A program made the translations under genes and the position numbers. This document shows positions 3,820 to 22,311 of a stretch of 22,311 nucleotides of DNA, piece by piece (the first letter of the stretch is position 1; each line of letters starts with the position of its first letter). Under the pieces are notes generated by a model. It was not told the origin of the DNA. It saw only the letters and a list, made by a program, of their open reading frames with translations, and did no database searches. Source of the DNA: an archaeon (lineage in GTDB: Archaea > Asgardarchaeota > Thorarchaeia > Thorarchaeales > Thorarchaeaceae); assembly GCA_024276825.1 (NCBI GenBank), contig JAJRWI010000058.1, forward strand, positions 1-22,311. The letters run 5' to 3'.

Positions 3820-5175
3820 TCATTTTTTCCAGATTGTACGCGGATCGACCTGGCGCCCAAAGCCTGCAAGTTCGTCCATTTTGACAATTAGTCTATTCAG
3901 CCATGGCATATGTTGAACCATCCATAGTACTATCTTATGAAGAATGTTGTTTGGCTTGTTGTATGGGCATGAGCGAATGCAGTTTGAGCAGTCGCTCCCA
4001 TTCTCAACCCAGAACCCGTAGCATGTTTCTGGGTTAATATACCACTTTCTAATCCCGGGATTGTTCGATTTAGTTTCCCCCTGCCAAGTCCTGCCTCTGT
4101 CATATGAGATGGATTGTGATGGGCAATGTTCTGCACACTTCTTGCAGGCTTCACAAAACCGTACAACCGCCCTGCAAAAGTCGAAGTTTGGCTTGTCGGG
4201 GATTAGAGGCATATCAGTGAGTATCTTGGCAATTCTCACTCTTGGACCGAACTGCTTTGTAATCAAAAGCCCATGACGACCATATTGTCCAAGACCAGCA
4301 TCAATTGCCAAAGGAACACTCAGGGCCACATTGTTTCCGCAGGGTATTGCTAAATAGCCCAATCGTTAGATATACTCCGCCAGCTCTATCTCCAAGAATG
4401 CCATTTTCGAGTATCCCAATGCTGTAGCGACTGATGCAGCGAAGGCAGGAGATGAGTTGATCTTGTCATAATCCATCTCTACTGCCATGACCACTGCAAA
4501 CATGATGGACTCGTCAATGTCATAGGGTTCCCCCTCGATATTGGTCTGGTAGATCCACTTTCTGTCCAGTTTTGCAACGCCCACAAGTGATGCGCCAAAG
4601 AATCGTGCTACTCTCTTGATGTGTTGTGTCAATATCTCGGGGTCTGCCTTCAAGCGTCTTTGAGGTCTTTTGCTCTTGTGCTGCTTCACATCATATGCAT
4701 CCGATGCATTGAATCTAGAATCATACAGCTTCCATGTGGCGATTGAGAGTTCAAGATCAAGTCTGCCATATCCCGCAATCCTCTTTCTAACCACACTCTC
4801 TGATGAGTGATACACTCCCTTCTGATAGTGTTGAAATGAGGGGTCCTTGTACACTCTTGCAAATATCATGTTGGCCTCTGGAAACCTCTCAAAATAATCA
4901 GCAACCTCATAGGGCCTTTTGTCCTCCTCGATCTTGACACGAGCCCTCCTCTTCGCCTGCCGCCTCGCACCTCTCTTCTCGTCCAATGATATCGCATCGA
5001 AAGGACATGCGCGGGCACAACTCAAACAACTCGTACAAGGCTGGTTCTCAAAGTGTGGGTGCCCATCACCCTCATCAAACTTGATGTATACATTATCTCC
5101 GTGAATTCTTTGACATGCTTGAATACACTCAAGAGCACACTCGTTGGGCCTACAGAGAACGGCATCAATCCTCAT
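3820..5175 (-). pseudogene. rdhA: Reductive dehalogenase (RdhA/QueG-superfamily cobalamin Fe-S enzyme) split by one in-frame TAA at 4366-4368
   Basis: ORFs 4366..5175 and 3820..4362 share a frame: AEYI*RLGYLAIP. Motifs include IKRVARFFGASLVGV, WIY, AIDAGLGQYGRHGLLIT..FGPRVRI.KILTD.PL, FCEACKKCAEHCPSQSI and C...W......CSNCIRSCPYNK. Confidence 0.85.
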
Positions 5176-17800: not shown

Positions 17801-20002
17801 TTGAATAATTATATGATCATTTCAAATGTATTTCAATCTAATCTGACTATTGATGACATCAGACAAAACCTAGATGTTTTCAAAATTGAAGGCGTAGGTG
17901 TAGGGTTTCAGAAATATGGGATTATCAGCAAAGCGATTAAAATTTTGGAACAAATTAGCAGAACTTCTTTTGTCCAATATTCGGAAAATCAGCAAGACTA
18001 TGCAATTGGTTTTATCAAAACGCCAATCAAAGATACACGAATGATTGATGCACATGTAACATATGAGGGCAAAAAGACACTTGATCCGTCATTATCACTA
18101 AACAAAACACTTGCCTCACTATTGAACAAAACAAAAGAATACAAATTAAGGGCTATCTTATGGAAGGGTGGACCCCATGCCTTTTTTTCAAAGAAAGGAA
18201 CAGAAATTCATGATAATGGATATAATATCCTTCTCTTTGAAGGCCTGAATTTTCGATATAATATTCTTAATGATGGACGGATAGTTCTCTCTCTTGATGT
18301 TATGACAAAATATTACGAGTCTAGTCCCTATCTTGAATATATTGAAGAAAATGGTTTGCAATCACTTATGGAAGAAATAGAATATAACAAACAATATATG
18401 AAGAATTTAGGGAGGACCTTCAAGGGAATTCATTTCTTCTATAGTTTGTCACCCATGGATGTAACAATTGATGGGTTTGATCCACGTCCAATATCAGAAA
18501 TTCCTGTAAAGTCATATTCTGGAACACATGGGAATGATTCTCAAACAATTGCAGATTATCTGTTATTAAAATATCACAATAAAAACTTGGGAGGCAGGTT
18601 AGACTTGGATCAACCAGGACTGCGACAAGGAACTATGACTTTTGCACCACAATTTCTTTTTAAGAGCATACCTTTTCAAGATGTCCCCTCAAAGATTAAA
18701 GATGGCTATACCTATTACACTGATGATGCTCCATTCTATGATCGTGATTTGGAACATACTGCAAGAACCCGCTGGAATAAGACTATGGATTTTTTTGAAA
18801 AATATGATCTCTCATTACTTGATTTTGGTCCGCATAAGCTGCTATTTCAAAAGCCACTTGAATACCCTCCTTCAAATCATTTTAGACTACCATATATCAT
18901 CGCAGGCCGGAAAAAAAGGGTATTACCTTCACAAATTCAAGATGAGTTAAAGAATGGATTGTATCAAATTGTGCGGATTAAGAAAATATTTGTATTTTCT
19001 AAGACCAAAATGTACCTAAAACATTTCTATAGGCTACTGGTTCAATATGCTAAAAGTCAATTGAATGTTAGACTACCAAACAAGCCGATTATTCTGGAAA
19101 CCGACTTGAAAGCTATGGAAACCCAAATTCAGCGCTCATTATCAATCAAACCTGAACAATCATTAGTGATTGCAATTATAGACGATAAGGATAATCAGTT
19201 ACATGACAAAATAACAAATATATGTGGTCATCTTGGGGTTCCTTCAAAATGCATTACTTCCACCGTGGTTAAAGCAATCACTGGTGGGAAGAAATTCTAT
19301 CTCTCCGGTTTTATATCATCACTCTTAACACGAGCTGGATTTATCCCATGGGTTTTAGATACCAAATTACATTATGATTGCTACATCGCAATTGATGTTG
19401 GTCGCGCAAAATCCGAAACTTGGGCATTTTTAATTGTGTATAATAAAAACGGTCTGTATAAACTAGGTGAGAAAAAACTAACTGTTGGGGAGTCAATTAC
19501 AAAGGTGGGCCTTGAGTCTTGCATTGAATATGCACAGTCAGCTGTTCCAAATGCAAGATCAATAATATACCTTCGTGATGGAAGTATAGGTAAGCAAGAA
19601 TATCTTGCATTTCAAGAAATTCTTGAAAGGTCTGCACTTCATCATGGCGCCATTGTATCCGTAAGAGAATCAACTCCCTTTAGAATCTATAGAGGTAATG
19701 AGTCCGATGTCTGGCGTCCAAATTCTGGTGATTATTATATTCTCGACAATTCAAATATTGTTCTTTGCGCTGCAGGAGCAGACGAATATAGTCATGGTAC
19801 ACCAAATCCAATTGTAATTGATTTCATTCCAATAAAAGGAACTATTGAAATGTTGAAGGCGGTCGAAGATATATTCAGGCTCTCATATTTAAATTGGGCA
19901 TCGCCTGGAAAGAGCTTTTCAACTCCAGCTCCTTTACGAATGGCCCACAAACTTGCAAGGGAAACAAGCCTAGGGCTTGAACGCAGTACTCTTCCCTTCT
20001 AA
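17801..20002 (+). CDS. ago: Long Argonaute (N-L1-PAZ-L2-MID-PIWI) with an intact DEDH catalytic tetrad
   Basis: 733 aa. PIWI motifs YIAIDVG (D532), GESI (E564), YLRDG (D593), P..GDY, GTPNP, DIFRLSYLNWAS and PAPLRMAHKLA (H716). MID segments GVPSKCI and RAGFIPW. L1 segment GRIVLSLDV. Confidence 0.92.
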   Translation: MNNYMIISNVFQSNLTIDDIRQNLDVFKIEGVGVGFQKYGIISKAIKILEQISRTSFVQYSENQQDYAIGFIKTPIKDTRMIDAHVTYEGKKTLDPSLSLNKTLASLLNKTKEYKLRAILWKGGPHAFFSKKGTEIHDNGYNILLFEGLNFRYNILNDGRIVLSLDVMTKYYESSPYLEYIEENGLQSLMEEIEYNKQYMKNLGRTFKGIHFFYSLSPMDVTIDGFDPRPISEIPVKSYSGTHGNDSQTIADYLLLKYHNKNLGGRLDLDQPGLRQGTMTFAPQFLFKSIPFQDVPSKIKDGYTYYTDDAPFYDRDLEHTARTRWNKTMDFFEKYDLSLLDFGPHKLLFQKPLEYPPSNHFRLPYIIAGRKKRVLPSQIQDELKNGLYQIVRIKKIFVFSKTKMYLKHFYRLLVQYAKSQLNVRLPNKPIILETDLKAMETQIQRSLSIKPEQSLVIAIIDDKDNQLHDKITNICGHLGVPSKCITSTVVKAITGGKKFYLSGFISSLLTRAGFIPWVLDTKLHYDCYIAIDVGRAKSETWAFLIVYNKNGLYKLGEKKLTVGESITKVGLESCIEYAQSAVPNARSIIYLRDGSIGKQEYLAFQEILERSALHHGAIVSVRESTPFRIYRGNESDVWRPNSGDYYILDNSNIVLCAAGADEYSHGTPNPIVIDFIPIKGTIEMLKAVEDIFRLSYLNWASPGKSFSTPAPLRMAHKLARETSLGLERSTLPF

Positions 20003-21001
20003 ACTCATCTGAATAATGTTCGATACACTTTCAAACACATTAAAGTACCTATTATCTGGTGCATTGTTTATTAATTTCCAACCAACGTTGAATAAGCATC
20101 TAACATCATTTGGTGGTTGGGATGTAAATTCAACAATATCATAATCTATTTCGGTCATACTATCAAGTGTGAATTTGAAACTTGTTTGACATGCTGCTTC
20201 TTTTATAAGATCAATTGAATCCACAATCTCCTCGTCTGCCCAATCATATACCAAAATGTTGCGAGCAATCTCCTCAATGTCATTAGCAGTTTTATTAAAT
20301 CCATTCTCTCTTAATACTTCAGTCATTAGATGGACTCGAAATGAATGATGGGGATGTTCGTCTGCAAATTGATTGAAAACAGGCCATAAACACTCTATAT
20401 ATGCAAAGGGATATGGGGGACCAATAAATGATGTTGCAATAGCATCACAAATTGCCTCTTCTATTCTTCCTTCTTGATACTTAATATCCAATCCTGAATG
20501 AATTTGCTTGCTAATTTTCATAACAACATCCTTTGAACTTAACCAACAATGAGCAATCTCATGAATTGCAAGAGACCAAAATATAGGGGGGTCAAACTCG
20601 TGCACTAAAATAATAAAATAATCAATATCTGATGATGAATCTATTCTGTTGTAATAATCAAAAGCACCAGTAGCTCCATAGATTGTTGAAAACACTCCTA
20701 ATGTTGGATCACTTATTTCCATCATTTTGGAACAATACTCAATAAGGCCTTGCAAAGATATCCACTTGTTTGATTTACTACATTGAACAGCAGTTGATAT
20801 CAATTGCTGTTGAAATGTTAACCAATCCAATGAAAATCGAGCAAGTCGAATATCATTTATTGTGTAAATACTATCAATGTCATGAGAAGCTCTGGATATG
20901 TATTCAGAAACTCTGTCACTCAAATACTTTGAATATTTCTTAATAATGTCAAACGGGACCTTTTGTGGCATTGTTTCTAATTGCTTGTTTAATAATCGCA
21001 A
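19970..21001 (-). CDS. HEXXH zincin-like protein (real start possibly ATG 21033 via an A-run frameshift)
   Basis: LAIHEIAHCW...EEAICDAIA...GPPY...HPHHSFR. Overlaps the ago 3' end by 33 nt. Confidence 0.7.
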   Translation of the reverse strand: MRLLNKQLETMPQKVPFDIIKKYSKYLSDRVSEYISRASHDIDSIYTINDIRLARFSLDWLTFQQQLISTAVQCSKSNKWISLQGLIEYCSKMMEISDPTLGVFSTIYGATGAFDYYNRIDSSSDIDYFIILVHEFDPPIFWSLAIHEIAHCWLSSKDVVMKISKQIHSGLDIKYQEGRIEEAICDAIATSFIGPPYPFAYIECLWPVFNQFADEHPHHSFRVHLMTEVLRENGFNKTANDIEEIARNILVYDWADEEIVDSIDLIKEAACQTSFKFTLDSMTEIDYDIVEFTSQPPNDVRCLFNVGWKLINNAPDNRYFNVFESVSNIIQMSLEGKSTAFKP

Positions 21002-21033
21002 TCTGTAATTAAGTAATATTACATATTTTTCAT

Positions 21034-21432
21034 TTAATGAAGGAAAAGTGATCGTGGATCTACACTCCTTGATGTTATGTTGATGGCATTATTTGCAATA
21101 ACTCGAAGAATATCAAAACATTTCCCACTTGTTTCATTGTTCTCAATATGTTGGATGCAATCATCAAGTCTTTCTATTAGTCCTGTTGGATCTATTTCTA
21201 ATTCCTTGACGAGGTTTTCTGCTAATTCAACTAAGAAAGCCTCTACTATGATTTCTCTCTCTATGAAACTTCTTGCTCCTTCTATTATCTCTCTCAATAT
21301 TTTGATAATCCTCTCTCTAGTGTGCTCATCTGGTGTATTCAAGGTTCTTGCTTCATGAATGAAATCTGAAACCGCTGACGCAATACGCATTCCTCTCATT
21401 GAATCTTTTGAGAGCATCCAAATGCTTGCCAT
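21034..21432 (-). CDS. 132-aa alpha-helical hypothetical protein, probably co-transcribed with the HEXXH gene
   Basis: Its TAA is immediately followed by ATG (TAAATG). GGTGGA lies upstream of its start. Confidence 0.7.
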   Translation of the reverse strand: MASIWMLSKDSMRGMRIASAVSDFIHEARTLNTPDEHTRERIIKILREIIEGARSFIEREIIVEAFLVELAENLVKELEIDPTGLIERLDDCIQHIENNETSGKCFDILRVIANNAINITSRSVDPRSLFLH

Positions 21433-21619
21433 AATACTCAGTCCACCACTATCAACTTTGCTGCGTAATTAATTAACTCATTTGTAATAATAAAATGTAG
21501 AACCTTTTATTTCTGTCTTTTTGTTGCTTATTTAACAATTGCTAGATTATGATATTCATTTTACTGATAATTGCCATTTTGAATTCTCACAGTGATTAAG
21601 ACCTTCTTCTTCTCCCAGC

Positions 21620-22311
21620 TCAAATATTGGTCACCTTGACTGCCATTTTTTCCAATTGTTTTGCAATGATGCTTCGATGACAAAATTGATTATCTCTCTA
21701 AAAACAAAGAAGCGCAACTCTGCTTTGCTCACTCATTTTCTTTATTCTTGCTAGAATGTCTTCCTTATTGATTAATTCTGCCTCATATCTTTTGAAGAGT
21801 TCTCGATAGTCCTCATAGGATTCAAGATTTTTCCTTAATGACGCCTCAATGCCAAGCTCTGGAATATGAACATACTGAATCTTGAATCTACTCAGGTAAT
21901 CACTCAATTTGGTCTTGTTGAAGCCAAATTTGCGGCTGGATGGGTTCTTTCGTACATCAATGACAACATTGACACCATTGGATATCATTACACTAAGAAA
22001 CTCATCAATAGTCCTGCCTTCATAACCAATGGTAACTACTCCCTTCCCCTTTTTCTGGGAGCCTTTCTCAATTTGGTCATAAACCGTATATTCTGGATAG
22101 TTGGAATAGACATAGTTCAGTATCTCTTCATTGTCCATTTTTTGAATGCCTCTATCTGACGGTCGATGATCTCTTTGATAGAATTATCAATATTATTTGG
22201 AATATGCTTCAACTCTCTTACTTCAATGTCTGACTGCCTGATAATTCCCTCTCTCTCCAGACGATAGAGATCATGATACATCTGAAACGAAAATGGGCCG
22301 TATTTATATGG
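21620..22311 (-). pseudogene. SocA/Panacea-like N-terminal domain fused to DUF488, with a frameshift near 22139-22143 and an in-frame TAG at 21698-21700
   Basis: Window end reads PYKYGPFSFQMYHDLYRLEREGII...EAFK, then a frameshift in an A-run. Next come TIGYEGRT, VIDVRKNPSSRKFGF, YVHIPELGI and LLCF*RDNQFCHRSIIAKQL (family motif LxCxE....CHR). Confidence 0.85.

Follow-up and report, generated by a model that had tools for sequence, protein, structure and literature searches.

The Argonaute gene of this contig appears to encode one part of a three-part mobile anti-invader system, in which a guide-sensing slicer is coupled to a plugged protease; we put the probability of this reading at about 0.55. 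The system would be composed of a long prokaryotic Argonaute (Ago), a small helical protein and a putative zinc peptidase of the zincin type, encoded by three adjacent genes. As this trio reaches the operons of bacterial DNA-guided, RNA-cleaving (D-R) prokaryotic Argonautes (pAgos) as well as many archaea, the Ago appears not to be a stand-alone protein. Coordinates refer to the window, i.e. the whole stretch of 22,311 nucleotides that was analysed.

Table 1. Position of the trio and of the surrounding features in the window
Feature	Position	Strand	Remarks
Long prokaryotic Argonaute, 733 aa	17801..20002	+	ORF intact, no internal stop
Ago catalytic codons	D532 19394-19396; E564 19490-19492; D593 19577-19579; H716 19946-19948	+
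Unnamed putative zincin (gluzincin/M48-like) metallopeptidase, 343 aa	19970..21001	-	HExxH motif, AF2 pLDDT 88
Small helical protein, 132 aa	21034..21432	-	Directly upstream of zincin
ago/zincin coding overlap, tail-to-tail	19970..20002		33 bp in the window, 4-51 bp at the loci of homologues
Low-GC accessory island	15500..22311		GC 0.36; context, outside conserved trio; reaches contig end
mazF/PemK pseudogene	16311..16700	+	In-frame TAG 16521-16523; context only
DUF488 gene, PADLOC PDC-M19A-like	21620..22138	-	In-frame TAG 21698-21700; context only

The Argonaute gene and its island

The ago reading frame starts with a TTG codon, and the database call begins at ATG 17813 and yields a protein of 729 aa. 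Residues 456-720 match the Pfam Piwi domain above cut-off and the PADLOC pAgo models match with an E value of 1e-44, the best family model being PprPIWI, a name for which a literature search returned no paper. The first-pass annotation had described an intact long Ago with a D532-E564-D593-H716 tetrad, and the uninterrupted frame together with these matches bears this out. No Pfam match to a PAZ domain was found in the window Ago; in profile-profile alignments with full-length long Agos the family is nevertheless covered over positions 5-723 by D-R Agos (23-727 by the TtAgo type), and for this reason the protein is a full-length long Ago, of N-L1-PAZ-L2-MID-PIWI architecture. The AF2 model has a pLDDT of 51 with a low-confidence N-PAZ lobe, and the Foldseek ranking of this poor model confirms the fold but does not allow clades to be ranked.

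All four residues of the tetrad align with the D/E/D/D of TtAgo, the D/E/D/H of HrAgo1 and the tetrad of RslAgo. In VbAgo and in the PDB entries 8xih/9wmd the catalytic D/D/D stands opposite D532, D593 and H716; the two entries would be MbpAgo judging from their length of 795 aa (the MbpAgo length is given in PMC13346755). The earlier assignment of the catalytic residues is thereby upheld, and the intact tetrad, aligned with that of slicer Agos, makes the window Ago probably able to slice, as had also been proposed. Across 32 members of the core family, as we call the closest group of homologues, the tetrad is DEDH in 25, DEDD in six and DDDH in one. The 5'-phosphate pocket of the MID domain is non-canonical, with H468/T472/K483/R511 in place of Y/K/Q/K, and does not conform to the (Y/H/R)-K-Q-K pattern; the motif HTKR is found in 14/32 core members and the second lysine is missing in 32/32. 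The C-terminus, ending in PF, is conserved. R713 occupies the position of a lysine in D-R pAgos (K759 of PliAgo) and of a histidine in most others (PMC9360449). The genome that encodes HrAgo1 is listed under the same phylum, which supports the Asgard host, and one homologue, at 53% identity, carries the name Thorarchaeota, from which the class would be Thorarchaeia.

The location in a low-GC island is confirmed: GC is 0.36 in the island, 0.446 in the left 15.4 kb and 0.436 on average in the genome, and among 2.2-kb windows along the genome ago itself, at 0.358, ranks in the bottom 0.7%. Restriction-modification, McrBC, Mrr, UvrD, integrase and terminase genes are found as neighbours of trio loci. 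The reading frames of mazF and DUF488 both run on past their TAG codons. Read-through as pyrrolysine was considered and rejected, since a search of the genome, which is 98% complete, turned up no pyrrolysyl-tRNA synthetase (PylS), and since TAG behaves as a normal stop codon, long ORFs ending with it as often as with TAA; relaxed ARAGORN calls bearing on this question are noise. Both genes are therefore broken, as first annotated. A scan of the window for promoters and terminators, made with a bacterial consensus on an archaeal host, gave results at chance level.

A helical protein and a putative zincin beside the Argonaute

That ago has no co-oriented partner is literally true of the window, but the statement misleads, since two convergent partner genes are conserved; the suggestion of a possibly stand-alone nuclease finds no support, these two genes being kept with it in a wide range of archaea and also in the D-R operons of bacteria. 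The 343 aa protein starts with an N-terminal helical hairpin followed by H147-E148-xx-H151, E182, C185-D186, G194-P195 and (H/Y)P-xxxx-R222. H147, E148, H151, D186, G194 and R222 are present in 33/33 homologues and E182 in 32/33, so that both the HExxH motif and the distal glutamate ligand are in place. By its motif the protein is a probable zinc peptidase. It has no Pfam, PADLOC or NCBIfam match, the cut-offs of Peptidase_M48/U49 and CapP not being reached. Its model resembles most closely the structure of BepA, an M48 peptidase (Z 8.6, rmsd 5.2, 163 residues aligned), and it also matches Q74D82 (Z 7.8), both Z values being near background for helical proteins. The weak Foldseek matches are zinc peptidases, TM scores to Atlas M48/M56 proteins are 0.33-0.38, and the nearest Atlas clusters contain unnamed, chiefly bacterial proteins.

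The helical protein belongs to no known family, with no match in Pfam, PDB or Atlas, no transmembrane segment found and no match to HTH or other DNA-binding domains. An identity as a HeLo protein or pore-former was considered and found no support. Among the archaeal members an N-terminal M-x-x-x-W is conserved. The complex of the helical protein with the zincin is predicted with a score of 0.79, against 0.47 for the best control, on a scale where the mark was reached by 58/80 solved pairs and by 2/110 mismatched pairs; contacts agree to at least 77% between runs and the pLDDT of the partner is 83. In the model the conserved W5 of the helical protein contacts E148, H151 and E181 of the zincin, residues 3-9 run alongside zincin strand 109-116, and the extra N-terminal hairpin of the zincin binds the partner. 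The helical protein is thus predicted to bind the zincin with its N-terminus in the active site, at the position of a substrate or an inhibitor.

Genes for the two proteins accompany 34 distinct Agos (less than 90% mutual identity), 27 in convergent and seven in co-oriented layout; since these loci are kin to each other, the numbers document conservation and not independent events. Within the class, Ago is present in 4/87 genomes and the zincin in the same 4/87, adjacent every time. This patchy distribution, with homologues on a provirus and on plasmids, agrees with the horizontal spread proposed in the first-pass annotation. The loci of close homologues that were examined all carry the helical and the 343-aa ORFs, at 35-39% and 40-45% identity respectively, every core-family locus with downstream sequence has the pair, and the layout is kept at 26-41% Ago identity, including in a Thermoplasmatota genome and the provirus. 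All metagenome loci with room downstream have the pair, with overlaps as given in Table 1; in one of them (L034) the zincin gene is split. More distant archaeal Agos, at 23-26% identity over MID-PIWI, also adjoin the pair, and the trio is found on plasmids of cultured haloarchaea. The linkage persists through an IS insertion and through inversion: in metagenome locus L031 and in two other Asgard genomes the genes are co-oriented in the order ago-helical-zincin. Haloarchaeal Agos with a replaced tetrad (e.g. S-x-N-R) retain both partners.

In bacteria the pair is located 3' of the gene for RslAgo (WP_013921749.1), a characterised nuclease that cuts RNA with DNA guides, and of those for related Agos from Rhizobium, Emticicia and a cyanobacterium. 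Homology between the bacterial and archaeal zincins is clear (hhalign probability 98%, E 1e-13) and that between the helical proteins is weaker (84%, E 7e-6). Among the 72,556 plasmids of PLSDB, an RslAgo-like Ago and the zincin are each found in five records; the two sets of five are identical, and the genes are again adjacent. No zincin was found at 34 control Ago loci (other Asgard Agos, TtAgo, NgAgo-like Agos), mostly searched with 1.5-kb flanks. The bacterial trio operons begin with HTH or sigma-70 genes, and no conserved HTH or sigma gene is present at the archaeal core loci. A search with an HMM of five Cas4-like PD-(D/E)XK nucleases found nothing in the genome or in loci L001-L080.

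Relatives of the zincin also occur beside dCTP-deaminase-like genes without Ago, and the same genome carries an orphaned, broken and decaying partner pair on another contig (C16); both observations count against a single three-part system.

Relationship to characterised Argonautes

In the MID-PIWI trees the window Ago lies within a core clade with 100/100 support, whose named or inferred hosts are archaeal. D-R-like Agos form a 99/99 clade without the core family in the careful tree, and monophyly of the zincin-linked Agos has an SH-aLRT of 99 in the quick tree and 73/58 in the careful one; the same values apply to a sister or near relation between the core family and the D-R clade. Profile scores of the core family are 390 for D-R Agos, 312 for canonical long-A Agos and 95 for the HrAgo1 group, whose profile is shallow; this last score is the lowest of four groups. 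The best PDB sequence matches of the family are the MbpAgo-length entries 8xih/9wmd and VbAgo.

The nearest characterised sequences are the D-R long pAgos, i.e. the PliAgo/RslAgo and PnyAgo/MbpAgo groups and VbAgo (PMC9360449, PMC13346755, PMC10448046). Like these the window Ago has an intact tetrad and a basic residue three positions before the last catalytic residue, and the RslAgo operon and the sigma-70-type operon of Emticicia carry the same helical and zincin genes downstream. Unlike them it falls in a separate archaeal clade, at about 19-22% identity, its MID motif H/T/K/R is neither RHSY nor HKQK, its gene is not preceded by one for a Cas4-like nuclease or by an HTH or sigma gene, and its partners are convergent. 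With the Cas4-like nuclease missing, the guides of the window Ago have no evident source, which counts against the proposed system. For the D-R operon PMC9360449 describes the upstream nuclease and regulator, and the word "peptidase" is absent from the paper; it also reports that RslAgo cuts RNA in vitro without partners, which speaks against a single system. Nearest characterised relatives, shared neighbourhood and the position of R713 at K759 of PliAgo together suggest DNA guides and RNA targets for the window Ago, a reading that we consider evenly balanced. Against a D-R type it can be noted that CpAgo, a DNA-cutting enzyme, comes close to VbAgo when scored with the profile of the family (83.6 and 85.8 bits) and that the Cas4-like nuclease is absent. 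The lack of the second MID lysine also counts against the proposed system.

It was also proposed that an Asgard Ago of this kind bears on the origin of eukaryotic AGO/PIWI proteins, and with an Asgard host and the DEDH tetrad that both HrAgo1 and human AGO2 possess, the window protein might have been a stand-alone Ago of the eukaryote-proximal, HrAgo1-like clade, acting on RNA with RNA guides. Identity to HrAgo1 is 18.6% over MID-PIWI, HrAgo1 (PMC11217426, PDB 8r3z) is separate from the core family in both trees, and in an AU test a tree forcing the core family together with the HrAgo1 group was rejected, though only at a borderline p=0.049. The trees contain no eukaryotic sequences and use HrAgo1 as proxy; with this proxy, the MID-PIWI phylogeny suggested as a check in the first-pass annotation places the core family elsewhere. 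As query HrAgo1 matches PIWIs with an E value of 1e-81, whereas a PDB sequence search with the core family, up to E=10, returned neither a eukaryotic Ago nor HrAgo1. Host, long architecture and tetrad are shared, but HrAgo1 has a canonical MID pocket and no zincin pair, and its gene adjoins those for RNase III and a helicase (PMC11217426). The genes called in the window and at the core loci include no conserved RNase III gene, and helicases are only sporadic, as UvrD. This alternative is already largely refuted and we hold it to be very improbable: by sequence the window Ago appears to lie away from the HrAgo1 clade and not to be eukaryote-proximal. An Asgard Ago with a DEDH tetrad need not inform the origin of RNAi.

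A proposed protease-coupled Argonaute and its alternatives

In the proposed system the Ago would load short guides, most likely of DNA, and recognise complementary invader nucleic acid, the window copy probably slicing the target; a target of RNA seems somewhat likelier than one of DNA, at about 50:30. In the complex that the zincin would form with its helical partner, the N-terminus of the latter would occupy the active site and serve there as plug or as cognate substrate. Once the Ago recognises a target, this complex would be switched on, and the proteolysis so released or activated would provide a second, abortive or signalling layer beyond slicing. We infer the coupling of Ago to peptidase, as well as the substrate and the outcome for defence; for the coupling the main argument is that both dead Agos and inverted operons keep the pair. 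Retention of the partners by dead haloarchaeal Agos would be expected if the role of the Ago is to sense on behalf of an effector. Widened to a class of Argonaute-based immunity, a counterpart of Craspase, the proposal would be that a long Ago, whether or not it is catalytically active, turns on the plugged zinc protease upon guide-target recognition in Asgard archaea, Thermoplasmatota, haloarchaea and the bacteria with RNA-cutting pAgos, and that this accounts for what D-R pAgos do in vivo. This wider proposal is tentative, with the odds slightly against it.

The same three genes could instead form a regulatory module, in which the zincin alone senses damage or invader nucleic acid, like CapP and IrrE, and clips the helical protein so as to control expression or activity of the Ago, the sole effector; in the bacterial D-R operons the signal could reach the co-encoded HTH or sigma-70 factor. 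One zincin homologue does weakly match the PADLOC capP model (E 9e-4), zincin relatives stand beside dCTP-deaminase-like genes, bacterial operons are led by HTH or sigma-70 genes, and the convergent overlap would allow antisense coupling. We judge this unlikely all the same, as searches with the helical protein gave no match to HTH or DNA-binding domains, the archaeal core loci have no conserved HTH or sigma gene, and dead haloarchaeal Agos which keep the pair argue that the Ago is not the sole effector there. Those dead Agos likewise stand against a role of the peptidase and a helical adaptor in maturation or recycling, by which they would process the Ago, or strip proteins off target ribonucleoproteins so that it can slice, with no toxic output. 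RslAgo and its relatives are moreover active when expressed alone (PMC9360449). M48-like peptidases such as BepA, the best fold match, work in protein quality control, which would fit such a role. A reviewer voiced a similar idea on the rare zincin-pPIWI-RE fusions (PMC3702460), but on balance this role seems to have only a slim chance.

An equally slim chance is given to an independent slicer accompanied by a hitch-hiking protease-inhibitor pair, which would stabilise the mobile island in the manner of a toxin-antitoxin and be uncoupled from the Ago. The pair is a transcription unit of its own in most archaea, a plug-like binding is predicted for it, an orphan copy exists on C16, and long-A Agos are generally stand-alone (PMC12094033). 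An addiction pair should, however, recombine freely, yet adjacency is maintained between lineages as distant as Asgard archaea and Bacteroidota, with Agos about 19% identical, and in both orientations, co-occurrence is reciprocal (4/4 genomes and 5/5 plasmids), and the orphan copy is decaying.

No paper describing the Ago-helical-zincin trio was found in the open literature, where a search for pAgos with peptidases gave only the rare zincin-pPIWI-RE fusions, which belong to a different family (PMC3702460). Peptidases are absent from the listed accessories of long-A Agos (PMC12094033). In the survey of Ryazansky et al. pAgo operons were defined by same-strand genes only (PMC6299218), so that convergent partners in archaea may have been overlooked. 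The natural role of DNA-guided RNA-cutting pAgos, studied as single proteins, is described as an open question in PMC9360449. If the two genes do encode a protease and its plug, D-R Agos would be the sensors of a multi-protein system.

Accessory-coupled pAgos include the short-Ago systems SPARTA and SPARSA, SiAgo-Aga1-Aga2 and the long-B systems, and CRISPR type III has guide-activated protease systems, namely Craspase (Csx29-Csx30-sigma) and CalpL-CalpT-CalpS. In the former group, to which APACE1 (PMC12094033) can be added, the Ago has constant accessory partners, as here, and inactive Agos depend on these for their effect. The known partners are NADases, nucleases and membrane proteins, in distinction to the putative metallopeptidase of the trio; most members here also keep the tetrad and most archaeal loci are convergent. 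Coupling to accessory proteins is thus already known, and it is the protease-coupled Ago which was not found in the open literature. The trio would work on the same principle as the CRISPR systems, in which target sensing is combined with a protease and its cognate substrate and in some cases with a sigma factor. It is not known to be homologous to them, and has an Argonaute in the place of the sensor and a putative zincin in that of the protease. The window zincin differs from the CapP-CapH and IrrE-type regulators and from the M48 peptidases (BepA, Q74D82) in lying outside Pfam and NCBIfam, in its extra N-terminal hairpin and in a partner that is not an HTH protein, and shares with them the HExxH motif, the distal glutamate and, as far as Z values near background suggest, a possible M48-like core.

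Further partner-pair and Ago traces in the genome of the window

The genome that carries the window holds a second, orphaned partner pair on contig C16, in which the helical ORF is unbroken (42% identity) and the zincin is interrupted by a TAG codon and ends short of its HExxH motif; no Ago was found nearby. On contig C60, within a low-GC patch, there is an Ago C-terminal remnant belonging to an Ago other than that of the window; another Argonaute was formerly present in the genome.

Features by location (G000, genome of the window; L112, Emticicia plasmid)
Feature	Location	Strand	Remarks
Orphaned second partner pair (L022)	G000:C16:37256-38199
Ago C-terminal remnant (L110)	G000:C60:5584-5799	-	72 aa
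249-aa ORF and mazF	window 15549-16700
Divergent actin-family protein	window 13515-14537		Pfam Actin, E 5e-8; host part of contig
S-adenosylmethionine-decarboxylase-like ORF and adjoining 678-aa membrane-anchored protein	window 10030-12455		read by eye
Two neighbouring ORFs like halves of a reductive-dehalogenase-like iron-sulfur protein	window 3820-5175	-	read by eye
Emticicia plasmid operon: sigma-70 factor, small unknown gene, probable nuclease, Ago, helical protein, zincin	L112:863-7021

Operons and plasmid Agos in other genomes

Full bacterial-type D-R operons, composed of a PD-(D/E)XK nuclease, ago, the helical protein and the zincin, are present in two other Asgard genomes, G315 (contig C3, L108) and G195 (contig C78, L109), with an additional HTH gene in G315, and were likely acquired by horizontal transfer. 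The G315 Ago has Gln at the second catalytic Asp position. The Emticicia operon is reminiscent of type III CRISPR systems with protease-released sigma factors. In the haloarchaeal plasmid Agos (L097-L100, L044-L049), which are annotated as "hypothetical", the catalytic tetrad is gone and the helical-zincin pair is retained; in Natrinema, IS5 and further genes lie between ago and zincin. For the comparison protein HrAgo1 (L051), the genome sequence gives Y512 and Q528, differing from the Phe512 and Asn528 of the published text (PMC11217426).

Genes neighbouring the trio and the zincins

In locus L001, too, the 249-aa ORF and mazF are paired 5' of Ago, at 26% and 37% identity. No family matched the 249-aa protein of the window. 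NurA-HerA-Mre11(-Rad50)-like clusters adjoin the trio in two Thorarchaeia-type loci (among L001, L002 and L003) and could possibly be the source of DNA guides. In other Asgard genomes (L086, L089-L094), trimeric dCTP-deaminase-like (DCD) genes have related zincins, without Ago, immediately upstream, either of about 460 aa with HExxH or of about 615 aa without a match to it, a pairing which possibly constitutes a second undescribed module.

Elsewhere in the window, the 678-aa protein reads by eye as having a methyltransferase or aminopropyltransferase-like domain at its C-terminus, and the dehalogenase-like halves are apparently divided by one stop.
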